Source: Eledone cirrhosa (taxonomy: Eukaryota). Taken from it: a stretch of 64,000 nt of DNA. The position numbers and the translations under genes are program-made. The notes below the pieces were generated by a model that saw nothing but the letters and a program-made list of their open reading frames with translations, was not told the origin of the DNA and did not search any database. The stretch covers positions 82,646,001 through 82,710,000 of the forward strand of contig OZ024740.1 of NCBI GenBank assembly GCA_964016885.1. Direction: 5' to 3'. Below are positions 10,004 to 46,032 of the stretch, one piece after another. Position 1 is the stretch's first letter; each line of letters begins with the position of its first letter.

Positions 10004-10235
10004 ATAAAGAATGAGGAATCAGGAAAAGCATCAAACCACAATTTATTATTATATTACATATGTTTTTCCGTTGGTCAGCTCGAGACAGGATCTGTTACAG
10101 ATCGAACCCGACTCTGCATAAATTGTGGTTCGATGCATTACTAATTCTTCTTCTTTATAATAGTATACTCTGCTCTGCGCGAGCATCGAGTGCCCAACCG
10201 GCATACCGCCTACGGACGCATTTAGCTGCAACCCT

Positions 10236-10317
<82 letters not shown>

Positions 10318-10738
10318 ACGAGAGAGAGAGAGAGGGAGAGAGAGAGCAAGAGCGAGACAAATAGATACAGGAATTGAAATATATTAAAACATACGATGTT
10401 AAAACGTGCGAAATTGCTACACAAACAAAATTTTATTGTGACTAAACTCATGAAGTATTTAAAATAAACAATATTTAATTACGATGTTATATAAGAATAA
10501 CGATGCGAACATGAAAATATATACACTCGTTGAAATTAAGAGTGTCATTGAACAAAGACAGTGGAAAAACAATCAAAAGACGGACAGTCTCATCTCCTCA
10601 GTGAAGCTCTATGAATCACTATTGTTGTACTGGCTGATACGGTTCATTCCAGTGCACATTGGAACACACACAAATACACACACATTCACACACACATACA
10701 CACACGCACGCACGCACGCACACACACACACACACACA

Positions 10739-10928
<190 letters not shown>

Positions 10929-11908
10929 TATTTAGGTTCGCAGTCAATGTTGAAATTCAAGTTAGATGATGAAGCAACGAAAACATGCACTTTTTAATGT
11001 TGCAAATAATTGACAAGTAGTGAGTAGGAAATATTAAATTATATATTTGGAATATGGAAGGGGAATAAAGTTAAGAGTTTGAAAGATCACCTAAAAAAAT
11101 ACACAATATTAAATAACTTTTATGCTTCAAATAAATGGAGGTACACTGGGATTATACTTAGATATCCCAGAGCTGGGAATAAAAAAAACGAACGCAGCAA
11201 AAGAAAGGTAATGGAAAGAAGGAACCAATATTGTTTCATAACTAGAAATAATAAAGCAACAGATAGAGAGTTACATATTATTAATACACACACACACGCA
11301 CACACACACACACACACTCGTGCGCGCGCATCTAAATAGATATAGATAGGCAAACAAGGATTTTGAGAGAAAATATGTCATTATTGGAACGGAAACTACT
11401 TTGGCAGTATGGGAGAGTATTTAGAACGAATGACTATGAATCTCGGGAGGAAATAGGGGAAAAAACTATATTAAATTGAATTAGAGATTGTAGAGAAATA
11501 GTAAAAAATAAAACTGTGTATTAGAGAGAATGTGTGCAGATGATATTATCTGTAAATAAAAAAGGAAGACAGCGAGGAAAATAAATAAACATCAAACCGG
11601 AAATATTTACATAAAAGGATCACACAAAATTCCGAATATATATAAGTGTACCTAAATCAGTGCAGTAGTTACAAGCGATGACGCATGAGAATGTAAAAAG
11701 TACAAAATAATAATAATAAAAATAAAAATTATAATAATAATAATAATGATTTCTTTATTAACCACAAGGGTTTACATAAAGTAGACATTAAGGACAGTGC
11801 AGGACAATACCGGCCGGTACAAATGGGCATTTCTACGTGTAAAAAACAAAAACAGAGGATGTAACAAAAAAATAACAATGAAAAATTCCCCAATAGGGGG
11901 GATCCGTC

Positions 11909-14900
11909 CTACACGCGACAGCAGGTGTTCGACATAAACCAACAAGTCAGAAATTTTCGGACACTGGATGAGTGAGGGCAGGACGGTTTCGTCGCCCTGC
12001 ACGCATCTCGGACATGCCCGGCGGACGGCACCTCCATGATGTAGGGTTTATTCCGAACTTGCAAGGCTCGTCGGTAGCACTGCCAGGACAGGGATTTCTG
12101 GAAGTTGTCCATAGGCCCCGGCCCGAAAGTTCTTCCGAAGAGATTGGCTAGTTTATTTTCGTCGACGCCTAGAGTTTCCCCAAGTACGTCGTCGCTCTTC
12201 CTCTCCACTAATCCTTTATAGAACGCGCAGGTGGAGTTTCCACCGATCACATTGCCCGATTGGTCGAGGGCTGTGAGCGCCTGAAGACATTCCAGTCTCC
12301 AGGCGCTCCCTCTCGGTCTTCGCTTGATCCAGGACTGCAGCTCCGTCAAGGAAACGAGCTGGGGAAATACGTGTCTAGCAAACGGCGACCACACCTGATC
12401 ACCGTCGAGGAAGAGGTGCAGATGTAACCTGAGCGCGAGTCTGCGCATCATCAGCCACGGCATGCCCAGCCCTCCACGTAGCGGGTGTTGACAACAGATG
12501 GAACGCCTGACCATCGGAGCGCGTCCCTTCCACAAAAAGCGAAAGAGGAAACGCTCCACCGCAGTCAGGCGGGGCTTAGGGCAAGGTACGACGGTCAGGC
12601 GGTAGCAGATGACAGACGTGCTGTACGCGTTAGCCACCTCCGCTCGACCTTTCAGGGATAGCTTCCTCTCCGCCCATTTCTGGGTGAGAGAAGCCACCGT
12701 GCTCGTCACCTCGTACCAATTTTTGTCCGTCTGAAGGTCCGGACCGAACAAGACCCCTAGCAATTTAACCGGTCTGTCCGTCCAGCGCCCGACGACGCTG
12801 TTGGACGGCATGGACCTGCCTCTCCAGGTGCCGAGCTGCAGGCCCACTGACATTTCCTGGTTGATCATTGCTCCTGTCACCGCTTCGTATTCTCTTAGTG
12901 TAGTGCCGATCGCCTCGATGTGTTTGGCGTTCGACACCACTACGGTGACATCGTCCGCATATGCTGACACGGATCTTCCGCATCCTAGTTCGCGCGGGAC
13001 GCCCCTCACAGTCTCCAGTTTGTGCAGTAATGGCTCGAGAGTCAATACGTACAAGAGGGACGAGAGGGGACATCCTTGGCGGACCGAACGCATGATGTTG
13101 AACGGTTCGAAAAGGTGACCGTTCACTCTCACCACAGAGCAGATGTCGCTGTGCATAGCAGCGATCCAGCCTCTTAAGGGCCCAAAGCCAGCGGCCCTCA
13201 GGACTGCCGCTAGGTAACTATGGTCGACCCTATCGAAAGCTTTCGACTGATCTAAATTGATCAAGGACCCACCCGTTCCAGGTTCCCAAGCTACCCTCTA
13301 CGATGTATCGCATTAGGTGGAGGTTGTCGTGGATAGATCTGTCGAGAATGGCGCACGTCTGCGCCTCGCCCATCAGACCACCAACGACAAGCGCGAACCT
13401 CTTTGCTAGCACCTTGGCCAAAATCTTCAACTCTGTGTTTAGCAGGGTTATGGGCCTGAAATGATCTGTGTTATCCCCCTTGTTCGGATCCTTTCTCAGC
13501 AGCGTCACAGCTTCGCGGCTGACAGAGCTGGGAATTCTCCCGTTCTGTTGCCAGTTGCAGTAGACGTCCGCCAAAAGGCCTCCGAACAAGTCTGATATCT
13601 GTACGTAAAGTTCATAAGGCAGACTATCAAAACCAGGCGATCTACCACTTGTGCAGCCAGTCATTTCCTCCCGTACTTCAACGGCTTTTATCGGCCTTTC
13701 GCAACACTCCGCCTCAGTGGCCGAGAGCCGCGGCAGACCGTCGAGGTAGACACTAAAGTCCATCCCTCGATCCGGACCGCCGCAGCCACCGAATAGCTGT
13801 GCGAAGTGTCGCTGAAAAGCATCACACATTTGCCCGGGATCGAGTAGCATGCGGCCGTCGTGGTCCACCAAAGACCGGATCGTGGTTTTGTTGCCACGAT
13901 GCGCTTCCGTCACTCGGGCCCATTGAACGGCCTTCGTCCCCTCATTTCTGAGAGCACGCACCCAAGCTCTGACAACGAAGCCTTCGTACCTTGCATTGAA
14001 GAATTGGTCCAGGGCCAATTTCGCCGCAAGTACGTCGGTCGCGATGCCTTTGCTAAGCGCCTCGTCTAATTTTCTAACTAATTCTCCCTCTGCTCTATTT
14101 TTCTCTATTGCCAAAGCCTTACTAAACCTAATGGACTCTATTCTAATTGCTCTTTTCAGAGCAAACCACCCCTTGTTGTTGACGATGGCCCCCGTCAACG
14201 TCCGCTTAACTAGTTCGCTAATCACGTCTCTGTAGGCCTTGCGCGCTGGTAAGGACGCGTTTAGCTTCTAGTAGCCGGGTCCTCGTCTATGAATCCTATC
14301 TAAGTCAAGCGCACAGATCACGAATTTGTGGTCCGTGTAGCTGACTATCTTGAATTGTGGATAGCCTATGCTAGACCTATCTATTTCCCTACAAAATACT
14401 CTATCTAGATATGATCTGGATGACCCTATGCGATTTGTCCCAGTCCACATTGGCACATTCGGGAAATCCAATCGGTACCTGTCAGACAGTCAAAACGCCT
14501 GAGCAGGTTGGTGAGGCTCTTGCACCCTCCTCCCCTATCTGGTGATCCCGCACAATCCCAGCGTGCATCTAAGATCCCGTTCCAGTCGCCCACTAACACT
14601 AAAGAGCGGGTCGTTCCAAGAAAGGTTTCCAGACGCCCGAAGAAATCAGGCCGCCCTGCTCCTGTCGGGGCATAGACGGCTACTAGCCTGAAAGCTTGCC
14701 CGTCTCCGCTGGTCACGTCTAGCACCACCAACTTACCTTCTGGGTCCAGGAAGATGGCCCGTATGGCGAGATCCAAAACTCTCCGAAAAAGCACAGCAAC
14801 TCCCCCCCCCCCCCCCGATCACGGACGGCTGGGAGCTGCGTACACATCGTAGCCGCCGAAGATTGGTGCGAAAGCCCGTATTCGGAGATTCTGGTCTCGC

Positions 14901-15012
14901 TGATGGCCACTACATCTATGTTTAGTGACCTGAGGTCGTTGAGCAGGTGGCCCTGCTTCCATGACGACCCCAAGCCACGCGCATTTATGCTGCCTATTCA
15001 GAGTGAGGTCAT
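11909..15012 (-). pseudogene. T1 ORF2 (APE endonuclease-RT), disrupted
   Basis: ORF pieces 11909-13264, 13230-14225, 14268-14471, 14426-14794 and 14719-14973 are collinear with the intact 1139-aa ORF2 at 25966-29385. Confidence 0.9.
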
Positions 15013-15299
15013 GTTGAAATTGAGTGGAAAAGATGGGAAAGACAACGTATCTTACTTCTCGTAGAGGAACGACGGTTTCTCCATCCTTTTCACTGCTTGT
15101 GGCCACCTGCGGAAGGATTGCCTTATAAATCCTCCTAGAGAGTGTTAGTCGGAAGTCTCCGATGTTTTGGGGGAATTTTTGTTTTAGTGTCGTGTACGTT
15201 TTCTGTGTGATGCGAGTGATTTGTAAGTGTGGTGGTGGTGTGAACTTTTGGGTTGTTGTGTAGTCTTTTTCTGTGATGCTGGTGTTGTTCAAATTTAAT

Positions 15300-15484
15300 T
15301 GTTTCTCCACTAGGCACAAGGCCAGCAAATTCACCAGTGCATTACTGGTACTTTATCTTATCGACCCCGTAAGGATGAAAGGCAAAGTCAACCTCGGCGG
15401 GATCTGAACTCAGATCGTAAAGGGACGTAACTATGCTGGAAAGCATGGCGTCCGACCCTCTACCGATACAGCCAATCCACCGCC
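15300..15484 (-). mobile_element. SINE S1 inserted into T1 ORF1 with a 17-bp TSD
   Basis: TGTTGTTCAAATTTAAT is duplicated at 15283-15299 and 15488-15504. A box TGGCTGTATCGG, B box GAGTTCAGATCC. Confidence 0.9.
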
Positions 15485-17362
15485 GGTTGTTGTTCAAATT
15501 TAATGATGTGTAGTGTGTATCGTTTTGGTTGTTTTGTTTCGTTTGCGTTTGTTGTGGGTTTGTTTCTGTTTCGCTTTTTGGTGACTTTTGTGGTGTTGGT
15601 GATGGTGGTGTTAGGGTTAATGATGGTGATAGTGTTGGTGTCTGTGGGGATGGGGTTGGCGATGCTGGTGTGGATGGTGGCATATCTGTCCTAACTTTTT
15701 TGTTTGATAGATTATTTGTTTCCCTCTGTATTTTGTTTTTAGGGGGTGAGGGAAGAGAATTTTTTGGGGGAGGTTTCTTTTTTTCGTTTTCCCACTCCTC
15801 GTCGTCACAATCTGTCTCCAGTTGCGATAAGCCGGGGAGTGGAAAATCCTCCACAGGCGTTGGTTTTGGTTGTGGCGTGGTGGATGGTGTAGGCGCAGGT
15901 GCTAGTTCTGGCGCGTTGGGTGGTGGTGGTGTTGGTTTTGCTACTGTTGCTGGGGTTGTTGCTGTTACAGTTGCTTCTGTTGTTGCTGCTACAGTTGTTG
16001 CTGCCATCTCTGCTGCTGGTGGTGTTAATGGTTGAGTCACTGGGGTGGGTAAGAGAGGTGGCCTCAACCTTTTAGCCTGAGGGCAGAAAGCCCTTAGGTG
16101 GGTTCCTTCACCACAAACGACACACATAGGCCTTATTCTCTCGACGATTACGGTGAGGTGGCTGTCGTCAGTGAGGTCTATTACCTCTGGGATCTCCTCA
16201 ATGCATTTTTGGTCCGCTTGGATCAGGAGCTCCATCCCAGATCCGGACTAGTTCTCCTGCTTTTCTTTCGCTATTTCTATTATTTTGGTGTTGGCTTCGA
16301 TGCCGGCGAGGACGGCAGGCATTAACCAGGGAATTTCGATGGCCGGTGAAACGTGGGTCACACTGATCTTCACGAGCTTCTGGCCACAATAGCTCGGGAC
16401 GAGTGTTAAGTCGTCACTTCTTAATGGGGCCATGGAATTTTCTCTGGCCTCCTGTGGTGTTTCAAAGAACACCTCCACGGTTCTATATTTCTGCCCACGT
16501 CTGATGTGGGGTTTTATTTGCCCACAAATGTCCCAAAGCTTTTTGGATTTGGGACTCGGATGCCCGTTCCACTCGGCGCGATTTTATATTAATTGTTCGA
16601 AAAGACACGGTGCATAGGCGCCGATGCTCCATTTTATTAGGTGGGGGAGGTGAGGCTGACTCTGTACCCATCTTTCTTTACCATTTTTTTGGCTTCTTCT
16701 AATTCCTCCTGAGTTACCTGAAATGCTTCGCACTGTTTTGCTACGCTGGCAAAACTCAGGGTGGTTTTCTTAATGTCATTGTTGCTGTTGTTGTTATCGT
16801 TATTTTTGTTATTAATTTTAGTTTCAGGTCTGATGGTGGTGGTGGCGTCAGTGGTGTTCGATGTGGAAGAGTTCATTTTGCTTGAATTCATTTCGATATC
16901 ACGAGTTAATGTATTTTTTCTTTTGTTTCTGTTGTCGCGGTGGTGGTGGTGGGGGTGGCGGCTTCAACACCTGCAGTCATTGGTAATGGCGGGAAATGAA
17001 TGTCTGGCTGAGTCAAATTTAAAATATTGCTACTGCTTACATTTTTAGTGTTGGTAAACGTAGTAATACTTACAATGGTGGTGTCGGTGTGAGGTGTTAG
17101 TTTGTGAGGAAAGGCTCTCAGCTGCTTGGTGTAACTGTGAGTCGTCCATGATTTTTTCAAAGAAATTCTTTGTTTGATAATCATAAAAGTTTAAATTTTG
17201 GGCTCAAGGCCCCAATCTTTTTGAGTGTCCTTTTCAGAAAGCAATGAATGTGCACTTATAAACAGTTAACAATAACATTTTCCATAAATGGCAATTTTAA
17301 ACAACTGAAAATAACAAACCTTTGCGGAGGTCACGATAATACGATTTCCTACATACGTCGCC

Positions 17363-17417
<55 letters not shown>

Positions 17418-17419
<2 letters not shown>

Positions 17420-20400
17420 GATTTCATTTATTGGCCACAAGGGCCGACATATAGGGGACAATACAAAAGACTGGGACAGTGGGGTTTTACAGAAAAATCG
17501 AGTAAACAATATGAATAAACAAAAGTAACAATAACAAAGTAACATTAAAGTAACAAGAAAATTACAACAAGAAAAAATTCCCCAATAGGGGGGATGACCA
17601 CCTAGGGTTCGCTCAGGTACCCCACCAGTCCTGAACGATCCGACGATTCGAGAGCACCCTGGAAGGACACCCCTCTCCTCTTCAAATTTACCTACCTACA
17701 GCCGCATGACCAGAGTAGACCCACTCACACGGGCCATTCTCGCCACATTCACCCACCTCTCAGCAAATGTACTGGGGAGCAGCACTTCTCTCTCCACCCT
17801 CACCTTCCTTTCCAAGTGAAACTTGAAAAAGTTGATGAGGGATTGGCCGAAGAGAAAGTGTCTGTCTTCAGTCCTTTCAACCTCGTCCACCATACAACCT
17901 CTTTCGCTACTGCCACCAGACAGAGGAACATTGCCTGCCCTTCCTGGCCAAAAGAAGGCGGCGGGTCGATCTTCACTATGGACTCGGCCGATAGCCGGAT
18001 CCGTTCTACAGGCGGCAACAACTGTTCAACATATTTCCACAAGTCAGTAATGCACGGACACTGGACGAGTGCGTGAAGAACGGTTTCGTCGCTCTGCGCG
18101 CATCTCGGGCAGGTCCGTCTGACAGCACTTCCGTGCCTGTAGAGTTTATCTCGAAGAGGCAGTGCCCCACGGTAGCACTGCCAAGCGAGGGATTTTTAGA
18201 AATTATTCATCGTCCCCGGCTCGAAAGTCCTCCGGTACAGACTGGTTAGTTCGACTTCGTTGACTCCCTGAGCCTCTCCGAGTAGGTCGTCGCACTTGCC
18301 ACCACTAATCCTCTATAGAACTCGAGAGTGGAAGTTCCACTGACCGCATTTCCCACCTGGTAGAGGGCAGTGAGTGCCTGGCAACATTCCAGATGCCAGT
18401 CACCCAGTCTCGGTCTCTTCTTGACCCAGGACTGCAACTCAGTCAAAGAAACGAGCTGCGGAAAGGCCCGTCTGACAAACGGCGACCACACCTGTTCACT
18501 GTTTAGGCAGAATATCTGGAGATGCCGCAGCCTCAGCGCGTGCCTGCGCATCATTAGCCACTGCTTGCCCAGCCCTCCGCGTACAGGGTGCTGGCAGCAG
18601 ATGGACCGCCTCACCAGCGGAACCTGACCCCTCCACAAGAATTTGAAGAGGAGCCGCTCCAAGATGGCGAGGCGCGAACGGGGGCAAGGGACGACAGTCA
18701 GACGGTAGTAGATGACAGACGCGACGTACGCGTTTGCCACCTCCCCTCGACCTTTCAGTAATAGCTTCATCCCAGCCCATTTCTGGGTGAGACTGACTAC
18801 CCTGCCCGTCACCTCGTCAAAATTCTTATCCACCTGGAGGTCTGGCCCGAACCAAACTCTTACCAACTTTACCGGTCCGTCCGTCCAGCGCCTAACGACG
18901 CTGTTGGACGGCATGGACTTGCATCTCCAGGTGCCGAGTTGCAAGCCTACTGACTTTCCGGGTTAGGTTTTGTTCCCGTCAACCTTTCATACTCCTCCAA
19001 TAAGTTTCCGACCACCTCGATCTCTGAGGTGTCCGACACCATCACGGTGATGTCGTCCGCATAAGCCGACACAGCCTTTCCGCGTTGCGGTTCGAGCGGG
19101 ATGCCCTGTAACAGCTCCAGCTTCCTCAGTAAAGGCTCGAGAGTCAATACGTACAGAAGGGAGGAGAGAGGGCACCCTTGACGGACCGATAGGGAGACCT
19201 GAAACGGTTCCGAGAGGTGGCCATTAATTTTGACCAGCGAGCAGGTGCTGCTGTGCATTGCAGCGATCCATCTTCTGAAGATGGGGCCGAAGCCAGGTTT
19301 ACACCCTACCCTCTCTATGATGTATCGCAATAAGTGGAGGTTGTCGTGTATGGACCTGGTTGGGATTGCGCATGTTTGCGCCTCTCCAACCAAATCCCCG
19401 ACGACAAGCGCCAACCTCTTCGCTAACACCCTGGCCAAAATCTTAAACTCTGTGTTGAGCAGAGTTATGGGCCTGATATTGTTTAATGTTTCCCTCTTGT
19501 TCTCGTCTTTCCTTATCAGCGTCACTACGCCCCGGCTCACAGAACTGGGAATACTCCCGTTTTGCTGCCAGTTGCAGTAGCGCTTCGAGGAGATTGGAGA
19601 ACAAGTCTGGCATATTTACGTAAAGCTCGTAGGGCAGACCATCCAAACCGAGTGACTTGCGCCTCATGCAGCCTACAAGGGCATCCTGAATCTCGGCTGA
19701 AGTAATTGGCCTTTCGCAGCGCCCAGCGTCAACCGTCGAGAGTTGCGGCAAGCCATCGATGTAGGGACTGAAGTCCGCCACTATCTCTGACTCGCCACTT
19801 CCCCCGAACAACCGAGCATAATGTTGGCGAAAGGCCTCACACATCCTCTTGCAATCGTTCAGCTCTTGCCCGTCTCGGTCCGTCAAAGACCGAATCGTGG
19901 TTTTATTACCACGCTGCGCCTCTATCATCGGGCCTATCGAACAGCTTTGGTTCCCTCGTTTCTTAGAGTAAGCGCCTTAGCTCTGACAATGCAACCTTTG
20001 TTTCGCATTGAAGAAATGGTCTAATGCCATTCTAGCCGCTAGCACACCAGTTGCAATGCCACTACCAATAGCCTCGTCTAACTTATCTACAACACCCCCT
20101 CCTTTCTATTTTTCTCTAATGCTACTTCTTTGCTAAACTCTATCGACATTACTCTAATCTCTCTTCTGAGAGCCCCCCGCCATCTATTGTTGACGACTCC
20201 CCATGTCAACTTTTTCTTAACTAAATTGTTGACCTGGTCCCTGTAAGCCTTACGTGCCGGAAATGAGATGTTTAGCTTCCAGTAAAAAGGTCCTAACCTA
20301 CGCGTCTTATCTAGGTCGACCATACAGATCACAAACTTGTGATCTGAATAGGCGACCGTTTCAAAACGTGAACAGCTTACACTATTTCTATCTATTTTCC

Positions 20401-23167
20401 TAATGAATATCTTGTCTATATACGATCTACATGACCCTATGCGGTTAGCCCAGGTCCACACTGGCGCATTAGGGAAATCTAGTCGGTACCTGTCAGACAG
20501 TTGGAACTGGCTGATCAGGTTCTTGAGGCTTTTGCACTCCCCGCTCCTATCGGATACTCCCACACAGTCCCAGCATTCGTCTAGGATGCCATTCCAGTCC
20601 CCCGCTAACAGTAAAGGGCGAGACGTACCCAGAAAGGCTTCCAGGCGCCTAAAGAACTCAGGCCGTCCTGCCCCTGTAGGAGATAGACGGCCACCAGTCT
20701 AAAGGCACCACCTTCATTATTGTTCATGTCCAGGACCACCAACTTCCCGTCCGTGTCCCGGAAGATAGGACCTTACCTCGAGATCCAGGCTTTTCCTAAA
20801 CAGCACTGCCACCCCGCCTCCCATTCCCGGCCGGCTAACAGATGCAAAGATCTGATAGTCGTCGAAAATGGGGGCTAGTGCGCACGTGTCTGAAATCCTG
20901 GTCTCGCTGACTGCAATTACATCCATTTCTATAGACCTGAGGTATTTGAGCAGGTGACCCTGCTTCCAGGACGATCCCAGGCCTCGAACATTTAAACATC
21001 CTACTCTTAATACGGCCATGTTGGCAGGTTAAACAGAGAGAGAGGAAGGTTTACTTACCATCCGGGCTCTTGTGAAGATCGGGTTGTTCAACCTCCATAG
21101 TTAGTGAGGTTTCTTTTGGGAACCCCTTTAACAGTCTTGAAGTGGGTTTTACGTTCGAGGTTCCCACGTCCCGAGGAAAGCTGTCTCGTATTTCTTTGAA
21201 TATGTCGAGCGACATTCGCACCAGAACCAAATCTTCCGGCACGCGAAATGTGCTCGATTTAAAAATGTCCCACTCTTTTTGTATATTTTCACTTCGAGCT
21301 ACGAGGGCCATCAGTTCCTTGTTGCCCCTCCTGACGAGCACGAAGTTTTGTATGTTTTGTTGGTGTGATTTTATTTGTTTGCGGGCTGTGGTGGTGATGG
21401 TTTTGGTGGTGTTGTTTCGGTTGTATCTGTGTTTGTTGTGAGTGCGGTGTCTGTGGTTTCAGATGTTTGTGTGTATATTTGTTCTTGCGTCTGTTTCGTT
21501 TGTTTGCGTTTGGGGGATTCTGGTGATGGTGATGGTGGTGTTGATGTTGGTGTTATTGGAAATATGTTTGCATGGGTGGTTATCTGCGTTTTTTATTGTG
21601 GGTGCTTTTGTGCTTTGTTGAGTTTTTTTTTTCTCTTTGTGTTTCCTTTTTTGTATTTTGGGGGATTTTGGATTTCCCTCATTTTCACTACTGGTAGATG
21701 AGGGGTCTGTGTCTGTAAGTGTGTCTTTATGTATGTTTAACGTTTTATTGGTGTGTGTATTTTTTGGGGGGAGGGGAAATTTGACAGCTTCCCTCATTTC
21801 CCCCCTGGGTGGTCAATGTTGATGGTGGTCTTTCTATTGGTGTTGTTGGTGGTTTTGCCGGTGCAGGTGTTGGTTGTGGTCCTCGCCCCGGCGTCGGCAG
21901 CAGTGGAGCCTTTCGACCCCTTTCCCCTTTCAGCAGTTGAGGGCAGAAGGCTCGCAAATGGGTTTTTTCCCCACAAAAAAACACTGCCTTCGGTCATAAT
22001 GTGAAGGCGGATGTGGTCTGGGATTGTCTTCACATTCTCGGGCCTGATCTGGAGACGGATCTCCAGGTCAACCCCGGACCAGTCCTCACTGGCCGTTCTG
22101 GTCACTTCTATAGGGACTGTATCCGTCCCCTCCGCAATCACACATCCCAGAAGCCACCACATGTCAAGTCCTGGTGGGATTCTGGGAATGCGGAGACGGG
22201 CCGTGCTTGTTCCCATTTGGGAGGGGTACATTATGACCTTGCTGGTTTTGCAAGGAGTCATAGCGTGTTTTATAGCGAGGGCTTCTGACTTGAACAACAC
22301 CGAAATGGTGCCGTACTGTCTGCCCCTCTCTATGTACTGGGTGTCTTCTCTGATGCACCTCAGCGCGACTTCGACATCTTCTTGTGGGATTAACGCTGCC
22401 CTTTTGATTTGTGCTGAGATGCAACTATAATGCACGGTTTTGCGCTCCACTGCGCTCTACCGGGACAGTTAAGTTGGCCCAAGTTTGCTCTTACTTGATG
22501 AGCTTCCATGCCTGGGCCAACTTTTCATCTTTGTTTGAGAGGTCCATGTTGAAGCATGGCCTCTTTCTTGTTGTTGCCGCACCGAAAGTGGTCTTGTTTT
22601 CGTTGGGGGTGTTGTTGACGTTGTTCTTGTTGGTGTTAGCACTGTCGCTGTTATCATTGTTGTCTTTGTTGCCACCGTTGTTCTCGGTGCAGTTGGTATT
22701 GTTGCTGTTGGTGTTGTCGCTATTTGTTTTCATGTTAGTGGTGTTGATATTGTTGTTGTATTTATTATTTTTTATTGTTGTTATCTGTATTTTCGTTGTC
22801 GCTGTTAGTGTCATTTTTTTCAAAATTAGAGTTCTTATTGATATCATTGGTGTCTTTGTTTACCTTGTTTGTGGTGGTGTTTGTCTTATCAATGTGTGTT
22901 AATTTCGCTGTAGCGTTCCTCTCAACCTCTACGTTGGTGTCGCACGACAGCCAACATATCGCTGGGGGGCGTGGCTCAGCCATGTTTTTTTTTTTTCGTA
23001 AATTTTTTAACATGTAAAAAAAAGTTCAAATATTATACTTTCCCCTTCAAGGGGCAAAGTCTAAGGGCTTATATCCCTTACACAACGAGAAATATTTAAC
23101 AACAAATAATTTAAACATGCAAATAAAGCGACTTAATGTGAGCGAGCAAAATACGTCCACTTAGACC
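17418..23167 (-). mobile_element. Tx1-clade element T2, full span, frameshifted (divergent family)
   Basis: ORF1 pieces at 21051-22983 have an Asn-rich N-terminus. ORF2 pieces at 17696-21019 start MAVLRVGCLNVRGL. Flanked by (AAT)n at 17363-17417 and 23168-23200. Confidence 0.92.
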
Positions 23168-23169
23168 AA

Positions 23170-23200
<31 letters not shown>

Positions 23201-25580: not shown

Positions 25581-25662
25581 TAATAATAATAATACAACAA
25601 ATAATTTAAACAGGCAAATAAAGCGACTTACTGTGAGCGAGCAATATACGTCCGCTTAGACC

Positions 25663-25706
<44 letters not shown>

Positions 25707-25965
25707 TTTCTTTATTAACCACAAGGGTTTACATAAAGTAGACATTAAGGACAGTGCAGGACAATGCAGGACGGTACAAATGGGCATTTCTGCGTGTAAA
25801 CAAACAAAAACAGAGGATGTAACAAAAATAACAATGAAAATAACAATGAAAAATTCCCCAATAGGGGGAGACTTCGGAGGGACATTTGTGGAGAAAGCCC
25901 AGTAAAAAGCCACAATGACCCTGACCACCAAGGCAAGTGCCCTCTCCCAGTTTTCCACCTTTAGT

Positions 25966-29385: not shown

Positions 29386-29419
29386 GTTTAAATAGAGTGG
29401 AAAAGATGGGAAAGACCAC

Positions 29420-31514: not shown

Positions 31515-31745
31515 GTTTTTTTGTTTAAAATGAAATTTTGGGTACAAAACCCCAATAACTGGTTATTTAACCCCGAAGGGCCAAATAACGGACAGAAAGA
31601 CCCCTCTCACGAGGAGGAGGGTGTCTTTATCAACAATTTGGTTCAAGTTTTAAACAATTTACAATTGTTTTAACGGTTAAAAATTACTATACCTTACAGA
31701 GCCGAACCTCCGTCAACCATGGCATTCAATAATAATAATAATAAT

Positions 31746-34700: not shown

Positions 34701-34785
34701 CTATGAAGCCTATCTAAGTCAAGCACACAGATCACGAATTTGTGGTCCGTGTAGCTGACTATCTTGAATTGTGGACTGCCTATGC

Positions 34786-34787
<2 letters not shown>
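31746..34787 (-). mobile_element. Tx1 family A element T5, 5'-truncated within APE domain
   Basis: Near-identical to T4 25705-28750 with a few frameshifts. It stops at (TAA)n 34788-34823. Confidence 0.93.
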
Positions 34788-34825
<38 letters not shown>

Positions 34826-35585
34826 CAACAAAAAATTACCAAGCCAACATAATAAAAAATGGATGCAGCCCATTATGCCGTGTGTGCAAAAAACAACCAG
34901 AGACCATTGACCATATAATTTCAATGTGCGGTCCTATAGCTCCAACCGAATACCTAAACAGGCATGACAGAGCTGCACAATACATACATTGGATAATGTG
35001 TAAGCATTTTGACCTGCCCATCAAAAGAATTGGTGGGAGCATCAACCACCTCCCATACTTGATAAAGATCACATCTCAATCTTGTGGAACTTTAGCATCC
35101 AAACAGACCGAAAAATAGATGCATATAGACCTGATATAATACTGAAGGACTTTAAAAAGAGGGTATGCCTGCTAATTGATATGTCTGTTCCAATAGACAA
35201 GAATGTGTCTATAAAAACATTTGAAAAATTGAGCAAGTATAAGGACCTGGAGATAGAAATTGGAAAAATGTGGAAATTGAGAACTAAAACAATACCAGTG
35301 GTTGTAGGCGCTCTGGGAATGATACCTAAGGGATCTAATGATTACTTATCGCAAATCACAGGAAACCCGCGTATAGGAGAAATACAAAAGATAGTACTAA
35401 TTGGAACTGCCCATATACTAAGGAAGATTCTGTCAGTATAAGTACATCACAAGTCTAAACACTAAAGATGCATGTGTGAGTATGTATGCTCTTTCTTGAA
35501 CATGGCGGACCTTGTTGTCTCTTGAGGTCACTGGTTGTGACTTGGTGATAACTCGTATGAACATAAAGCAAGATAAATGCAACTG
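34826..35585 (+). mobile_element. Dong/R4-like RLE non-LTR element D1, 3' fragment
   Basis: CRVC...HIISMC zinc finger, RHD, RPD...D...K..KY restriction-like endonuclease, and (TAA)n tail at 35586-35603. Near-identical to 39710-40470. Confidence 0.9.
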
Positions 35586-36515
35586 TAATAATAATAATAA
35601 TAAATCAATTGTGAAATAACAATTCTTAGTACAAATGTTGCATAAACCAACGAATCAAGTCCCATAAAATTTCGGATCCATATTATATTGTTATATCGCT
35701 CAAATTTTTCAATTTTGTATTATATATTTTGTATTCAAAAAAGAAAATGGTTATAAATGGAAGAAAACACCCTCTGTCTACACCATATAGAACAGCCAAA
35801 TAACAGCAATTTCACCAACACCAGAATCTTGATACACCACCTACCCAATCACACTAAATATAACAGCCAGATAACGGCAATTTCACCACCACCCCCACCA
35901 ATCCCAGCATCATAATAATAATTACTATTATTATTGTCTCAAGTTTAACAAAATGTTTAATTCCAATTTTACGGGAATATGTCAACACAATATATAATAA
36001 ACATACGCGACACACACTCATAGATACTACATATCACAAAACTCAGTAACGACAACGCCACCGCCGCCACCACTTCATCCATCATTGCTACCACTATCCC
36101 ATCACCGCCGCCACTACTCCTTCATTGCTACCACCACTATTCCCCTGTTAACTTGAGAGAGAAAGGGGAAGGTGGCGGTATCACTAGACAAGGGAGAAGC
36201 TAGCAAAAGATATAAATAGATTGACTTAGTGACCTGGCCACCGGCCAAACGTCAACATCAACAACTATCGCACTGCTGGCTCACCCCTTCCTCACCAACA
36301 ATATAAACATCCCCAGAACCACCACCGACCTAGCCAACAACAATAACAGGCAACTTCAGCAAAAAGTATATTATATTATTGTAATGCACTGGGTGATTGC
36401 TGGGCTTGTGCCTGGAGTGGAGACAATTATTAATAATTTCATTCTTAAACCACGCAATGCTGACATTAAGGAACCACTCATGATAATAACAATTTAAATA
36501 AAACAACAAAAAGAA

Positions 36516-39500
36516 AACCCCGTGACAAAGAAATACCTGGATGGCGGCCGGCGGGGAATAGCCGTGTCTCTAGGGGAGAACGACCCCTCTAGTCTTGGTT
36601 GACACTCGTTCTAGAAGTGGTAACACGAAATGATTACCCCTTGGCGGATAAGGATAAAACGCGACAAAATAAAGTAAATGTCTAATGATAAAATCTCATA
36701 CGGATCGGCCGTCACCCGGGTAAAAAAGGGCCGCGTCCCTCAGAGAGGAACCAGACTGGGGTCGAATAATCAGCTAATGGTTCAAACCTTCCCATCACTT
36801 CGGAGCTGGAGACCACCCATATCCGGAATACTCCTACTGTTGGCCCTCCATGCTCACCACCAAGAAATCCAAAGTAAAAGAGAGAAAAATGGTCAAGGGA
36901 AGATAATAAATAAGTCCTTGAGGCTTTCTACACTGCCATGTACTACCCATCAAATACATCGAATACAGAACAGACATATATCAACTGGAAAAAGAAACAT
37001 CCCGAAAACAGAGGCTATATTGACAGCAACAAACTAGCCAATATACGAAGAAATATTGTAAGAAAAAAGTTACTAACTGATATAGAAATTGATCAGATCA
37101 AGCTATTAGCACAAAGTCAGCGAAGGGAAAATGAAACACGTGTCAGTGAAAACGAGGTAAATTGTAACACTTCGAATCCCAGGGTTGGGGCGGAATCACT
37201 GGCAACAGAACAAATTAAAGACAGGAGCGAAAAAGTGGAGGGAGTGCATGCTCAAGATGAAACTCCAAATGAAAATAATGAGATCGTAAATGATAAAGAA
37301 ATGAATGAGAAAAAACTTGCCAATTTGACGGATGAAATTATGATCGAATGGATGAAAATGAAAGAATCTGACATGGGGCAACGAGACACCCTCCCTAAGA
37401 TCCAGAACTCCAAACAGAACCAAAAGATAATACACAAGACTAACATAATTCTCAAAAACATTATCATCACAAACAAACTAAATATTACTGATTTAAATCA
37501 TCTCTATTATGCATCGGCTAAAGTCACCACTCACTTGTGTGGAGTGAAGATGAAAAAACAAAGGAATTCCCACAAGAAATCTACTTGGCAAGAGAACATC
37601 AATCGCCAAATAAACCTTCTCCGATCTGACATAGACATTTTAACAAACTATAAAATAGGTAAACATGTTAAACAAACAAAACTTAGAAAATTGAAAAAAA
37701 AGTACAGTATAAAATCAACAAGTGACATAGACATGCGATAGAAATAATCAAGCAACAAGTTGCGGCCAAAGCTGCTCGTATAAGGCGCTTTGAAAAACGA
37801 TCTAGATTCTATAAGGACAATAATATGTTCAAAAACAACCAAAGAAACTTCTACAGAAAAATTGGTAAGTCAACAATAACTGCTAAATCAATACCACCCA
37901 AGGAGGAAGTGCAAGAATTCTGGGAAAAGATCTGGGCCGAAGAAAAAGTTCATAACATACATGCCCCATGGATAGACAGACAAATGAAAGATACAGCTCA
38001 CCTTGAGGAACAAATATGGGAAAATATAACAGTTGAACAGTTGCGCTTGACTCTAAAAAAACCCACCAAATGGAAATCCCCAGGAAAAGACAAAATACAA
38101 ATCTTTTGGATAAATGCCTTCACAGCATCTCATGAGCTGTTAGGCCAACTTTACAATGAAATAGTTAAGGAGCCAGAAAAGATACCATCATGGCTAGTTA
38201 ACGGCATTATATTCCTGCTTCCGAAGAATGATGAAACAAACAATCCCAAAAATTACAGACCGATAACTTGCTTGACCACAATGTATAAAATTTTAACATC
38301 AGTCCTAACTGAATACACATATGACCACCTGATAACAAATGACCTATTTCCCATTGAGCAGAAAGGGTGTAAACGGGGCTCATATGGCTGTAAGGATCAG
38401 CTTCTGGTTAACAAAATGATACTGGAAGATTGTCATAATAGACACAAAAATCTATTGATTGCTTGGATAGATTATAAAAAAGCATTCGATAGTTTGCCAC
38501 ACAGTTGGATTGAAAAATGTTTAGAGATTTTCAAAATATCCCCCGTTGTCAGGAGGTTTTTGTCATTCAGTATGAAGACATGGAAAACGACACTCCTTTT
38601 GAATAGTGAAACAAAATCACTGGAAGCTGGAGAAGTTAATATTATAATTTTGGAATGTTTCAGGGTGACTCTTTATCACCGCTTTTATTCTGCATCGCAC
38701 TTATACCATTAAGTAAAATGCTCAATGAAACAAAACATGGATATAAAGTCTATGACAAAACCATTAATCACTTGTTATACATGGATGACCTGAACTATTT
38801 CCAAAAAATGATGAACAATTGCAAGGGCTATTATCCACTGTGGAGCAGTTCAGTGATGACATTAAAATGGAGTTTGGACTAGATAAATGCGCCAAAGCAA
38901 CGTTCACCAGAGGAAAGCTGCTGAAGAGTTCAGACATTAATCTTGATCGGGTGAACGTGATAAGAGAACTTGATCAAGAAAAAACTTACAAATATCTAGG
39001 TGTTTGTGAAGGAGACGGAATCAAGCACTCGACAATGAGGGAAAGGATAAGGAAGGAATGTTACCGCAGAGTAAGAGCAATCTTAAGAACGGAATTGAAT
39101 GCAAGGAATAGGATCGATGCCATAAACACGCTTGCCATACCAGTAGTAACCTACAGTTACAATGCATCAACTGGTCAAGCACAGAGATCCGTAGATTCGA
39201 TACAAAAATTCGAAAACTCTTAACCATGCACAGAATGCATCACCTTAAGGCAGATACAGATATAATATATCTCCCTAGGAAAGAAGGAGGACGTGGGTTA
39301 ATTCAGTTAGATATTGCGTTGAAAACTGCAACAATTAGATTATCTACATATCTAAGGGAATCACATGATTGGATGATCAAACTCGTTTTGAAACACGAAA
39401 GCATCAAAAGATCATATTCCATTACAAAAGATGCACAAAGATACAGTAATGGACTACAAATTTCAGAAGTCCCATTTACTGCTGCAATGGAAAACACAGA

Positions 39501-40470
39501 AAAAGCAAAGCAGGTAAAAGTAACTGCAAAGAAAGAACTGCTACAGAAACTGGCTAAGAAATGGCAAGAAAAGCCTCTGTATGGAAAATACCCAGAGCGA
39601 GCTAACAATCCTGATGTTGACAACATTTTAACCCATCAGTGGTTGGCATCCTCGGGACTGAAATCGGAGACTGAAGGACTGATTATATCAGCACAAGATC
39701 AGTGTCTGCCAACAAAAAATTACCAAGCCAACATAATAAAAAATGGATGCAGCCCATTATGCCGTGTATGCAAAAAACAACCAGAGACCATTGACCATAT
39801 AATTTCAATGTGCAGTCCTATAGCTCCAACCGAATACCTAAACAGGCATGACAGAGCTGCACAATACATACATTGGATAATGTATAAGCATTTTGACCTG
39901 CCCATCAAAAGAATTGGTGTGAGCATCAACCACCTCCCATACTTGAAAAAGATCACATCACAAACTTGTGGAACTTTAGCATCCAAACAGACCGAAAAAT
40001 AGATGCAAATAGACCTGATATAATATTGAAGGACTTTAAAAATAGGGTATGCCTGCTAATTGATATGTCTGTTCCAATAGACAAGAATGTATCTATAAAA
40101 ACACTTGAAAAATTGAGCAAGTATAAGGACCTGGAGATAGAAATTGGAAAAATGTGGAAATTGAGAACTAAAACAATACCAGTAGTTGTAGGCGCTCTGG
40201 GAATGATACCTAAGGGATCTAATGATTACTTATCGCAAATCACAGGAAACCCGCGTATAGGAGAAATACAAAAGATAGTACTAATGGGGACTGCCCATAT
40301 ACTAAGGAAGATTCTGTCAGTGTAAGTACATCACAAGTCTAAACACTAAAGATGCATGTGTGAGTATGTATGTTCTTTCTTGAACATGGCGGACCTTGTT
40401 ATCTCTTGAGGCCACTGGTTGTGACTTGGTGATAACTCGTATGAACATAAAGCAAGATAAATGCAACTCT
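36516..40470 (+). mobile_element. Dong/R4-like RLE non-LTR element D2, near full length, frameshifted
   Basis: Single-ORF layout in pieces at 36678-40325, with motifs WKSPGKD, YRPITCL, DYKKAFDS, FQGDSLSP, YMDD, CCHC finger and RPD RLE, plus an (AAT)n tail at 40471-40488. The 5' boundary is approximate. Confidence 0.9.
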
Positions 40471-40488
40471 AATAATAATAATAATAAT

Positions 40489-43450
40489 GCTGACGGGCTA
40501 GGACAAGATTTGGTTGATATCCTAAATTGAGTGGTAGATGAATTGAACAATGATAGTGGGAGACCTATGAACCTAAGGTTTGTAGACAGGAAAAGGTTAA
40601 AAGAAACAACAGCTAAGGTAAACAAAGTCATCCCATACCTTGAGGCGAGGAGCCTTCACCAGTGCAACAATATCCTCAAACCAACAGCAAATACGGTGAG
40701 GAAACTAGTTGGTATAAAAGCGAGAGGAAACAACATACAAGAAAGAGCAGAGCCTTGGTGGAAGAAACGACTGAGTGGTCAAATCAGGGAAATGAGAAAT
40801 GACATTGGAAAGCTTGAGTCCCTACTGAATGGGAAACTAAAAAACATAGACACTAAAAATAGACTGGAAATAAAGTACAAAACTAGGAGGAAAATGCTTA
40901 ATATTATCATAGAGGAACTGAAGCAACGCATTGTAGCAAAGAGTGCAAAAATCAGGCGATACGAGAACAGAGTCAGTCAGTATAAACAGAACCGCATGTT
41001 CGACAACAACCAGAAGATGCTGTTTGGACAGCTTGAAGGGAAAGACAGAGGCAACGACTTGATCCCTGAGGCGGAACAAACTAAAACATTCTGGAGAGGA
41101 ATATGGGAGCAGGATGTTAAACATAATGATCAGGCAGTGTGGATTGAGACAGTACAGAAGGAGATCAGTGAACAGGCACACCAACAAACTGATTTGAGTA
41201 TCACAGTTGAAACTCTTAAGGGGCAGGCCAAAAAACTAACCAACTGGAAATCACCAGGCCCAGATGGTGTGCAGGGGTATTGGATTAAAAATATAACATC
41301 CCTCAACCCGAAAATGACAACCATGTTCAATGACTGCTTGATGTCAGGTGAGGTACCGGAGTGGTTGACAAAAGGTAACACAGTTCTGATAATGAAAAAC
41401 CGAATCAAGGGTAATGATGTTACCAACTATAGACCTATCACATTTCTGTCCGTAATGTGGAAACTGTTGACGAGCATTATGTCTGAGGAAATCTACCATC
41501 ACCTCCACACAAACAACTTGTTACCGGACGAACAGAAAGGATGCCGAAAGAAGTCACGTGGTACAAAGGACCAGTTACTTATTGATAAGATGGTAATGGG
41601 GAATTGCAAGAGGAGACATACTGATCTTGCCATGGGATGGATAGACTACAGAAAGGCATTTGACATGGTGCCTCATTCTTGGATCACCAAAGGCCTGGAG
41701 ATCTTCAAGGTGGCAGATAACATCAGACAGTTGTTGGGCAAAAGTATGAGGTCCTGGGAAACAGAGTTGACATCAACTGGAGAATCCTTGGGAAGCGTGA
41801 AGATCAAGAGAGTTATCTTCCATGGAGATAGTCTATCCCCTCTGTTGTTTGTCCTTGCCCTGATGCCCCTGACCAGTGTACTGCGAAAAGTGAGAGCAGG
41901 ATACAGGTTGGGAAAGGGAGGGCTTACCATCAATCACCTCCCCTTCATGGATGATTTTAAGCTCTTCGGGAAGAGTGAAAAGGAGTTGGATGTGCTTGTT
42001 GACACTGTCCGTATTTTCAGCAGTGATATATGTATGAGGTTTGGTATTGGTAAATGTGGAGTAATTGTGATGAAGAGGGGTAGGTTGAGCAGAAGTAACG
42101 GGATCCAGATACCAACAGGTGAGATGATAAAGGAAATTGACTCTGAGGAAGTATACAAGTATTTGGGCGTTCTGGAGGCTGATGGCATAAAGAACAAAAA
42201 AATGAAGGAATTGTTAAGAACTGAATACATTCGGAGAGAAAGGAGCATATTGAAGTCACATCTGAACAGCAGAAATACCATAAGCGCAGTAAATTACCGA
42301 GCTGTGTCTATTATTAGGTACAGTGCTGGAATTCTTAGATGGAATGTGGCTGAACAAAAAGAAATGGATAGGAAGACTAGGAAGCTATTGACTATCTACA
42401 ACATGTTCCACAAGAGGAGTGATGTCGATAGACTCTACTTAAGGAGATTTGAGGGTGGAAGAGGTCTTATCAGCATAGAGGACTGTGTTCAGATGGAGAA
42501 AAACAACCTACACAAATACGTGACTGATAGTAAGGAGCCAATGCTCAGAACTGTACTGAAGGAGGGGAGAATAGGCCAGGGGATGTCCAAAGAGGAAATA
42601 ACATCAAGGAGAAAGAGCAGCCTTAAGGAAAAATCCCTTCATAGTACATTCTTTGAGAAAACTGAATTTAGAGATCCACAGACATGGAACTGGTTGAAAA
42701 GAGGAGACCTTAAAAAGGCTCAGAAGGAATGTTAATAGCTGCGCAGGAGTAGGCCCTCAAAACGAAGTGGTTGAAACACCATATTTACAAGGAGTAGGCT
42801 AGCCCACTGTGCAGGATCTGTGGAGAGAGAGAGGAGACTGTGGCTCACATTGTATCCGAGTGTAAACACCTAGCCCAGACCCACTATAAGAGCTGGAGAC
42901 ATGATGAGATGAGCAGGGTGATCCACTGGCACCTGTGCAAAGTAAACATTCTGAGAAATGGTATGAGCATAAGCCAGAGGCGCTGATAGCGAACGATCAG
43001 GTGAAGGTGCTGTGGGATTTTAGGATACAGACGGACAAGAAACTGGAACACAATAGACCTGACCTGGTGGTTGTGGACAAAGAAAAAACATCGTGCCTGA
43101 TTGTGGATGTGGCCTGCCCATTCGACACGAGAGTGCAAGAGAAGGAGAGGGAGAAAATTAACCGATACCAGGACTTAAAGTGGGAGGTAAAAAGGATTTG
43201 GAACTGCCATGAAGTCAAAATGATCCCGATTGTCATAGGCGCACTAGGGACTATCTCCAAAAGTTTCCAGGGATGGTTAAAGAAAATCGGCCCCTGCACG
43301 CTTTTTGGAACGCTTCAAAAGGCATGCTTGCTGGGAACAATAAAGGACCCTCCGATACGTCCTAAATATCTGAGGCTGCAGGTAGTGGCTTGATATTCAT
43401 TTTAACAAACTTTCCAGTTAACTAACATCAATGACTGAAACTCAAAGAAC
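40489..43450 (+). mobile_element. second Dong/R4-like RLE family D3, 5'-truncated
   Basis: 734-aa RT ORF at 40531-42735 (WKSPGPDG, DYRKAFD, FMDD), then stop codons and an RLE piece at 42935-43393 (RPDLVV..DVACP). (AAT)n tail at 43451-43471. Confidence 0.9.
40531..42735 (+). pseudogene. D3 reverse transcriptase ORF fragment
   Basis: Non-LTR RT motifs as above. A frameshift and stop codons precede the zinc finger/RLE region. Confidence 0.85.
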
Positions 43451-43471
43451 AATAATAATAATAATAATAAT

Positions 43472-43530
43472 GCTTTCTTTATTAACCACAAGGGTTTACA
43501 TAAAGTAGACATTAAGGACAGTACAGGACA
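43472..43530 (-). mobile_element. 59-bp Tx1 family A 3' tip
   Basis: Matches the T4/T5 3' terminus and sits between two (AAT)n tracts. Confidence 0.85.
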
Positions 43531-43547
43531 TAATAATAATAATATAA

Positions 43548-43586
<39 letters not shown>

Positions 43587-43770
43587 GTGTATCTACTTTT
43601 GTCACAAGGCCAGCAATTATCCAATGCATTACTGGTACTTTATTCTATCGACCTCGGTAGGATGAAATGCAAAGTTAACCTCGGCGGGATATGAACTCAG
43701 TTCATACAGGGAGGTAACTCTATGTTTCAAAGCATGGCATCCGACCCTCTACCGATACTGCCAATCCACC
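43587..43770 (-). mobile_element. SINE S1 within (AAT)n
   Basis: Homologous to the other S1 copies, with (AAT)n on both sides. Confidence 0.85.
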
Positions 43771-43789
43771 AATAATAATAATAATAATA

Positions 43790-44400
43790 CCGCTACTGGT
43801 CTTACTGATGGTGCTGAGATCGCTGTTACTGGTATCGATGTCATTGTTGATGTTTTGTTGATACTGTTCCTACTATTATTGTTGTTGTGGCTGTTGTTAT
43901 TGTCATTGTTATTGTCGTTCTCGACCCTACCGCTGTTATTTTTGTTATTGTCGTTCTCGACTTTAGCGCTGTTATTTCTGTTGTTGCTGTTGTTATTGAT
44001 GGTGTTATTGTTGGTTTTGTTGTTAGTGTTATTGTTGTTATTGTTTGTGTTAGAAATATTTGGTAATTTTAAATCTGTAACAATCCTCTTTTCCTTTGTA
44101 ATATTTTTGTTTATATATACCTCCGCTGGAACGCTGTCGTGTTGACATGCTGATAACGTCTCCCTCTCTCTCTGTTGTCTGACAGCGCTCTCTCTCTTTC
44201 TCGTGTTATCCATGTTGAAATTTGTTTTCAAAAAATATTTTTACACAAATGCGATACCCCGTAAAGGGGTGCCGTATTATTTACGAGTGAACCCCTGTAA
44301 AGGTGGGTAACTTCTTCTAAACTTTTATCAAATTTAAAACTTGAATAAAAGGTTTAGAACGGTTGAAAACGAGGAAAAACGTTGAAAAAAACTGGAGGCG
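43790..44400 (-). mobile_element. probable 5' UTR and Asn-rich ORF1 start of another Tx1-like element
   Basis: ORF 43749-44231 has an Asn-rich N-terminus like the T1/T2/T4 ORF1s, and the UTR has hairpins. No diagnostic domain is visible. Confidence 0.5.
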
Positions 44401-44405
44401 ATAAG

Positions 44406-45607
44406 AAGGGCTGACATAAAAAAAAAAACATTACAGATGGCACAGCAAGGTGCAGGAATGTACGATGTCGGATTTGTGCGTGTAAATATTGTTATTATTT
44501 ATATAAGAAAAGAAAAAAAAGACATAGAAACATATATATATATAAACAATAAAAATGAAAATTGAAATAATGAAAAATTCCCCAATACGGGGGCAACCTC
44601 CGAGGGTTACTCGTGGCGAAAACCACGGCCATCCTGACCACCAGGGCAAGCGCCTTCTTTCAATTTTTCCATTTCTCAAACTACAGACGTATATTCAGAG
44701 CGGTCCCGTTCACTCGGACCATTCTCTCTACATTCACCCACCTTTCAACAAACTTGCTAGAAGGCAGTACTTGCCTCTCCACCCTGATTTTCCTCTCCAA
44801 GTGAAACTTGTAAAAGCTAATTAGGGATTTGCCGAAGAGGAAAGTGTCTCTCTTTAACTCTTTCAACCTTGTCCACCACACAATCTCTTTCGCCATGGCC
44901 ACCAGGCAGATGAAAACCGCATGCCCTTCCTCCACGAAAGAAGACGCCGAGACCATCTGCACAATGGACTCAGTCGATAACCGGATCAGTCCTACACGTG
45001 ACAGCAGCTGTTCGACATAGCTCCACAAGTCAGCAATGCTTGGGCACTGCGTCTTCGACTGTTTCGTCGCTCTGCGCGCATCTCGGACAGGCACAGCTGA
45101 CGGCACTTCCGTACCTGTAGAGCTTATCTCGAACCGGCAGCGCTCCCCGGTAGCACTGCCGGGCCAGGGATTTTTGGATGTTATCAATAGGCCCTGGGCT
45201 GAAAGTTCTCCGGAAGGGAGCAAACAGCTCATCTTCTTCAACGCCCAGGATCTTCCCCTCCACTACTCCTCTATAGAACGCCGAGGTGGATGTTCCACCG
45301 ATACTGGTGCCCAGCTAGCAGAGGGCAGTGAGCGCCTGGAGACATTCCAGTTTCCAAGCGCTATCCCTCGGTCTTTTTCTGACCCAGGACTGCAGCTCCG
45401 TCAAGGAGACGAGCTGTGGGAAAACGTGCCAGGCGAACGGCGACCACACCCGTTCACCGTCAAGGAAGCACCAGAGATGTCGAAGCCTCAGCGCATGATT
45501 GTGCATCATCAGCCATGGCATGCCCAGTCCTCCACGCAACGAGTGGTGACAGCAGATGGATCGTCTGACCATGGATGCGCGTTGCTTCCATAAAAAAGTG
45601 GAAGAGG
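44406..45607 (-). mobile_element. Tx1 family B element T6, 3' fragment
   Basis: Collinear with T3 23219-24446, including the 3' UTR. Confidence 0.88.
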
Positions 45608-45986: not shown

Positions 45987-46023
<37 letters not shown>

Positions 46024-46032
46024 GTATTAATA

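Follow-up and report, generated by a model that had tools for sequence, protein, structure and literature searches.

How does a run of retrotransposons come to be laid out so that the members of one class point one way, those of another point the other way, and the seams between them consist of one and the same trinucleotide repeat? The question is raised by a 64,000-nt stretch of the 3.0-Gb genome of Eledone cirrhosa (GenBank assembly GCA_964016885.1, contig OZ024740.1, here C1, positions 82,646,001–82,710,000; hereafter the window), of which positions 11706–45607 are taken up by an array of long and short interspersed elements (LINEs and SINEs). The answer favored here, to which a probability of roughly 85% is assigned, is that (AAT)n tracts across this genome are occupied by Tx1-like and Dong-like LINEs, together with a SINE, in orientations that are fixed and opposed. 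The likely cause is a difference in strand choice: the AAT strand would be nicked by the Tx1-like enzyme and the ATT strand by its Dong-like counterpart, with reverse transcription primed in either case at the repeat tail of the element concerned. All coordinates without further label are window positions, and the orientation of tracts is given on the plus strand.

Self-BLAST, open reading frames (ORFs), and Pfam domains resolved 14 retroelement pieces in the array (Table 1). The Tx1-like elements, which combine an apurinic/apyrimidinic-type endonuclease with a reverse transcriptase (APE and RT), lie on the minus strand, as do both SINEs, which we take to be tRNA-type from their box motifs; the Dong/R4-like elements, combining RT with a restriction-like endonuclease (RLE), lie on the plus strand. 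This strand split had been described in a sequence-only reading of the window, and its family counts held as well: there are three APE-RT ORF2 types (A, C, and D; 73–80% identical to one another at the DNA level), which carry four distinct 5′ ends, where at least three families had been claimed, and two Dong-like families (DongA and DongB), each with a single RT-CCHC-RLE frame. Each of the 12 tracts it had listed was found within 2 bases and reads (AAT)n on the plus strand. Among the 18 tracts of at least three units within the array, 17 are AAT and one is ATT; the latter (35927) and the AAT tract at 35914 lie inside the 5′-untranslated region (UTR) of DongA and are not junctional. The (AAT)11 tract at 34789–34821 separates two 5′ ends, so that no tail accounts for it. 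That AAT marks every boundary was, however, too broad a claim, as the right end lacks it both at 44405/44406 and at 45607. At the former junction, the tract has been lost: other copies of the same 5′ end continue for ∼16 nt and then read AAT. Similarly, only one of the two SINEs (43585–43770) is embedded in (AAT)n as proposed, the other (15296–15481) sitting within ORF1 of the first element without an array.

Because a 3′ repeat tail alone is uninformative on targeting, 5′ junctions elsewhere in the genome were scored, the window's own copies being excluded. The (ATT)n specificity proposed for the Tx1-like families was borne out: all 87 full-length 5′ ends of three 5′-end types adjoin (AAT)n. 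Two or more units follow in 29/29 cases for each of the A, C, and E types, and at least four units in 29, 27, and 25 of them, respectively. For TxA, 37 longer loci were inspected, nine of which had no scorable 5′ end; the full-length scorable copies carry AAT on both sides without exception (28/28), with at least five units on the 5′ side (median 8). Upstream AAT was also present in 32/41 and 37/50 5′-truncated copies of Dong, in keeping with the insertion into (TAA)n that characterizes Dong/R4 elements. At 20,000 random positions drawn from 40 arbitrary 10-kb stretches, (AAT)5 never occurred at the start, and (AAT)2 within 28 nt occurred 268 times. The target is rare, with 10 (AAT)n tracts versus 444 (AT)n tracts in these 400 kb, and the abundant (TA)n of the window's flanks is unused by the elements of the array. 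At five loci (L238:5500-5610, L012, L015, L016, and L024), Tx1-like 3′ ends stand beside (ACT)n or (AAC)n grading into AAT, which represents either one more variant of the target or tracts of mixed trinucleotides.

The opposite polarity is equally a property of the genome. A survey of 360 loci, which were best matches to young copies and hence no random sample, yielded 383 junctions with a tract, of which 39 were duplicates; after de-duplication, 323 were AAT junctions between elements, and 313 of these keep the orientation seen in the window. Fifty-eight are head-to-head Tx1/Dong junctions, and thus no 3′ tail accounts for their tracts. Mapping of genomic copies, flanks, and orientation had been proposed as the check on the sequence-only reading; non-microsatellite 5′ flanks or random orientation are not the rule. 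Joints of a DongA 3′ end with a truncated Dong, of the same kind as in the array, were also present in raw reads of another sample. The window is not a special locus, as such arrays are common genome-wide, and its array is a typical example of a genome-wide rule; a Tx1-AAT-Dong junction was present in one of the 40 arbitrary stretches.

How the two orientations may arise follows from the tails. Target-primed reverse transcription is established for L1 and R2, and together with the tails it implies first nicks on opposite strands. With AUU repeats closing the Tx1-like RNA, synthesis of its cDNA would have to be primed by the AAT strand, probably cut after AATAAT; a second cut some 15–19 bp away would duplicate five to six units. 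The Dong-like RNA ends in AAU repeats, which would make the ATT strand its primer. In the Tx1 clade, target site duplications are ∼15–25 bp. Those of the Tx1-like LINEs are hidden in perfect repeats, but the five-unit minimum of the 5′ flanks fits a duplication of five to six units per insertion, and the SINE leaves duplications of 14–19 bp. Two-sided regeneration of the target, as first proposed, is supported by both measures. Each insertion would then leave a tract on both sides, raising the number of targets, and later members of the guild would land between earlier copies without breaking them.

The SINE appears to be a client of the Tx1-like machinery. Over its final 25 nt, it matches the 3′ ends of the Tx1-like elements, whereas those of Dong show no such match: in 10,000 shuffles, the score was reached twice each for C, D, and G and 261 times for A, as opposed to 8,365 and 9,785 times for Dong. 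Of 16 full-length copies in the arbitrary stretches, 11 are bounded by duplications of 14–19 bp, 10 of which end in AATAA at the tail side, an end that hints at where the nick falls. These observations support that a short AATAAT suffices for the SINE, an array being unneeded. Through the common 3′ end it may borrow the Tx1-like enzyme, at a looser site specificity, and new tracts could be seeded by its tails.

Insertion is not the only way in which the arrays grow. Elsewhere on contig C1 (G000:C1:441086500-441143100), a head-to-tail TxA array of ∼57 kb is marked by nine TxA 5′ ends, with eight at a spacing of ∼6.06 kb, and has imperfect 51-bp spacer repeats. Imperfect spacers recur between tandem copies at some loci, and a composite unit made up of a TxA 5′ end, a tract, and a Dong fragment recurs at a spacing of 6,914 bp with 100% identity over 300 nt. 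Whole-unit duplication is therefore a second route of growth, for which unequal exchange between two like neighbors is the simplest reading and read-through copying an alternative. Of the earlier idea of a self-amplifying landing pad, the two-sided regeneration of target stands; the special status does not, given how common such arrays are, and unit duplication also adds copies.

Several findings weigh against the picture drawn so far. Ten of the 323 AAT junctions break polarity; by eye, four are scoring artefacts, two are internal inversions, and four are real or unclear. In automatic scoring, the alignment ends of 5′-truncated Tx1-like copies continue into AAT in only 10/33 cases; 11 of the 23 negatives reflect a deletion or inversion inside the element or a change of family, and inspection by eye removes ∼4 more, leaving roughly 10/18, to be set beside a chance level of 268/20,000. 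None of the 16 SINE copies in the arbitrary stretches starts its 5′ flank with an AAT array, which rules out the SINE as a strict array-targeter. Finally, the searches return the best 30–40 matches, which favors young full-length copies.

Related Tx1-like elements joined by (GATA)n were first met in two of the arbitrary stretches (L246 and L259). GATA-joined tandem arrays of several families occur there and at L351-L370 (e.g., G000:C3:320000001-320010000). The main GATA family has an intact 1150-aa ORF2, 69% identical to that of family A, and a (TATC)n tail. Its lineage continues 5′ into (GATA)2 or more at 27/29 ends and into AAT at 0/29, and all 21 GATA junctions join two lineage members, with no Dong. 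In both the ATT and the TATC lineage, the tail always matches the target. The endonuclease hairpin loop, which is the loop grafted in L1 chimeras (PMC1950540), reads mostly Arg-Ile-Gly-Ser in families A, C, and D, which use ATT, whereas the TATC families have Arg-Ser-Gly-Thr, Arg-Ser-Gly-Gln, or Arg-Asn-Gly-Gln at this place; this association is a correlation across related families, not a set of independent events. In the RT tree (19 rows), the TATC lineage (96/98) is sister to family C (96/99) and thereby nested in the ATT group, whereas in the APE tree (nine rows; FastTree), the ATT families group together instead; the switch between ATT and TATC may have gone in either direction. A wider interpretation, which we hold only tentatively and at slightly less than even odds, is that these elements form an undescribed microsatellite-specific Tx1-like radiation with two exclusive guilds: one on (ATT)n with Dong and a client SINE, the other on (TATC)n, which would have branched off inside the ATT group through a change of target that left its mark in the loop (Ile/Met-Gly-Ser versus Ser/Asn-Gly-Thr/Gln) and the RNA tail. 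That the sister lineage proceeds on (GATA)n in like manner, unmixed with the AAT guild, belongs to the favored answer itself.

The main rival to enzyme-guided nicking shares its strand logic, the one point of difference being how the site is selected. The endonuclease would be loose, and site and orientation would depend mainly on base pairing between the repeat tail of the RNA and a microsatellite strand that is nicked or frayed. The constant match of tail and target in both lineages agrees with this, as does the SINE, an apparent user of the Tx1-like machinery for whose insertion a duplication ending in AATAAT is enough; moreover, grafting of the L1 loop failed to transfer target choice, integration being constrained beyond nicking (PMC1950540). 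On the other hand, the 5′ flanks of full-length TxA, never shorter than five units, far exceed the 6 nt needed for priming, and the hairpin loop varies with the target across families. Selection by the tail is judged less likely than not, if by some distance the best of the alternatives. Much less probable is that transcription starts upstream in the repeat, and that the 5′ tract is carried in the element RNA, its presence then reflecting copying and not targeting. Full-length copies are indeed 100% AAT-flanked and truncated Tx1-like copies less so, and in assay constructs, TAA lying upstream was transcribed along with silkworm Dong (PMC3774820); yet truncated copies still adjoin AAT (69/91 for Dong; the Tx1-like copies at 25582 and 34789), and copying of flanks cannot explain why the far side of a tract is taken by other members of the guild in a set orientation. 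Tandem duplication or misassembly of near-identical repeats as the main source of the arrays is the least probable of all, since, despite identical spacers and tandem composite units at some loci and contigs from public runs (pieces of ∼60 nt) too short to span the window array, no two copies in the window are more than 97.7% identical, which favors serial insertion, their truncation points differ, seven families alternate, and the same types of junction recur at hundreds of loci and in the raw reads of the other sample.

The names Tx1-like and Dong-like reflect architecture and target, not phylogeny against reference sequences. Tx1-clade features found here are an ORF1, an ORF2 with APE, RT, and a C-terminal zinc domain, an endonuclease of the L1 group, and target-specific insertion. 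Pfam matches in the 1161-aa frame of family A are PF03372, PF00078, and PF13966, and the full-length family A copy (25705–31727) has an ORF1 with a CCHC knuckle, recognized by eye, that is split by a frameshift. The best solved-structure matches of its endonuclease are the L1 endonuclease and its loop chimeras, at weak scores (E 5e-6 to 2e-5). Among its named homologues, ORF2 is closest to a protein of Argonauta (73%), which points to an octopod host; one match, automatically named TX1, is 27% identical. Neither homologue searches nor a protein atlas supplied names that inform the placement in a clade. Dong-like intact frames of 1141 aa occur elsewhere in relatives of DongB, with RT, CCHC, and RLE motifs by eye and with R2 proteins as best solved-structure matches (E 3e-31). 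No named R4-clade reference was among the 120 listed homologues, and no N-terminal C2H2 finger was seen by eye in the Dong-like frames. A search of the array and of two complete Dong 5′ ends with Rfam gave no credible match to a hepatitis delta virus (HDV)-like ribozyme (E up to 1–5), although its models can miss divergent HDV-like folds.

ORF1 modules appear to have been exchanged between the Tx1-like families. The ORF2 of the first element (11748–17362) is 93–94% identical to that of the family A copy, but its ORF1 and 5′ end differ (type B); the same coupling of an A-type ORF2 to a type B ORF1 and 5′ UTR is present at L102 and L232. The 5′ end of type E goes with a D-type ORF2. DongA and DongB (35604–36430; L208 and L213) have divergent ORFs and related 5′ UTR starts (70–86%). 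A SINE-derived piece on the plus strand (∼36375–36430), corresponding to the 3′ part of the SINE in sense orientation, belongs to the DongA 5′ UTR as a constant component (30/30 top copies). Internal inversions within Tx1-like copies (L097, L154, and L215) resemble the twin-priming inversions known in L1. Both 5′-only Tx1-like fragments of the array (25594–25662 and 43789–44408) end in an ATT tract; they may have arisen either by deletion or by internal priming at GUU/AUU-rich RNA. The flanks of the array (1–11700 and 45990–64000) are AT-rich and contain dozens of (TA)n/(CA)n arrays, one of ∼3.1 kb at 60685–63803, and several SINE copies; the long ORFs in them are repeat artefacts.

Table 1. 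Elements and junction tracts of the array, in window coordinates.
Feature	Position	Strand	Evidence
Imperfect (AAT)n tract at the left edge, tail of the first Tx1-like element	11706..11747	+	
Tx1-like full-length copy, ORFs broken; A-type ORF2, type B ORF1 and 5′ end	11748..17362	-	
tRNA-type SINE within ORF1; 16–17 bp target duplication, no AAT array	15296..15481	-	
(AAT)18 junction tract	17363..17416	+	
Tx1-like family C, full length, ORFs broken	17420..23167	-	
(AAT)n junction tract	23168..23200	+	
Tx1-like family D, 5′-truncated, AAT on both sides	23201..25581	-	
Family C 5′-only fragment, 70 bp, between (AAT)4 and (AAT)14	25594..25662	-	
Tx1-like family A, full length	25705..31727	-	
Family A intact 1161-aa ORF2 frame (APE, RT, zf-RVT)	25966-29451	-	ORFs, Pfam
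Tx1-like family A, 5′-truncated, 97.7% identical to the left-hand copy	31746..34787	-	self-BLAST
(AAT)11, head-to-head junction of a truncated Tx1-like and a truncated Dong-like 5′ end	34789..34821	+	
DongA 3′ fragment, (TAA)n tail	34826..35586	+	
DongA, near full length, frameshifted RT-CCHC-RLE ORF	35604..40470	+	
DongB, 5′-truncated, RT-CCHC-RLE, (AAT)7 tail	40489..43450	+	
A-type Tx1-like 3′ stub, 60 bp, between AAT tracts	43472..43531	-	
tRNA-type SINE, AAT tracts on both sides	43585..43770	-	
Tx1-like 5′-only part, 5′ end of type E; 5′ AAT tract deleted	43789..44408	-	
Tx1-like family D, decayed 5′-truncated copy, AAT at neither end	44406..45607	-	

The target choice of APE-type elements is still an open matter, the L1 loop graft not having transferred specificity (PMC1950540). 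Two young sister lineages with intact ORF2 and a clean difference in target, tail, and loop would permit a direct test by swaps of loop versus tail, and any element whose insertions are confined to (AAT)n or (GATA)n is a candidate tool for safe-harbor insertion. The arrays suggest a route by which LINEs may stack in harmless places and become long tandem arrays in a 3-Gb genome; if the two-guild interpretation is true, elements of the APE and RLE types would, throughout the genome, be providing one another with safe places to land. The arrays also show an APE and an RLE clade in common use of one target, on opposite strands. What is new is a sister lineage that has separate (GATA)n arrays devoid of Dong and a different endonuclease hairpin loop. 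The literature searched, which left out Repbase, Kojima and Fujiwara 2004, and most subscription papers, contained no ATT- or TATC-specific Tx1 element and no target shared by Tx1 and Dong. Dong-R4 and L1-Tx1 elements were recently active in an octopus genome (PMC13282606), and octopus repeat papers describe them as abundant or recently active, the available portions reporting no insertion targets (PMC13282606, PMC8967140, and PMC9115989).

Among known systems, the closest in layout are SART and TRAS of the R1 clade, which insert in opposite orientations into the silkworm telomeric (TTAGG)n and form arrays (PMC10088271). The likeness lies in two groups of elements without long terminal repeats (non-LTR) that share one simple repeat in opposite orientations. 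However, both SART and TRAS are APE-type R1 elements of chromosome ends, whereas here APE and RLE partners, plus a SINE, use a dispersed microsatellite; with (AAT)n targets on many contigs, membership in SART/TRAS is ruled out. Microsatellite-specific Tx1 elements are represented by Kibi on (TC)n, Koshi on (TTC)n, and a crocodilian group on (TTCC)n/(TTTC)n; the Tx1-like families described here are likewise APE-RT elements specific for a microsatellite, with (ATT)n and (TATC)n as targets, neither of which is named in the text of that source (PMC4494074), although its Fig. 3 or supplements, Kojima and Fujiwara 2004, or Repbase may list such targets. Bombyx mori Dong, of the R4 clade, has TAA repeats at its 5′ junction (PMC3774820), and the Dong-like elements resemble it in their single ORF with RT, CCHC, and RLE motifs. 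The crocodilian SINEU shares its target preference with Tx1-Mar, and tandem insertions sandwich a duplication (PMC4494074); unlike in that pair, the SINE of E. cirrhosa is tRNA-type, has its 3′ end in common with its partner, and the target is a microsatellite. In R1 arrays, site preference gives rise to dimers split by a duplication, which unequal exchange expands (McGurk and Barbash 2018; PMC5932611). In contrast to such tandem arrays, those of E. cirrhosa are of mixed families, two-stranded, and dispersed.

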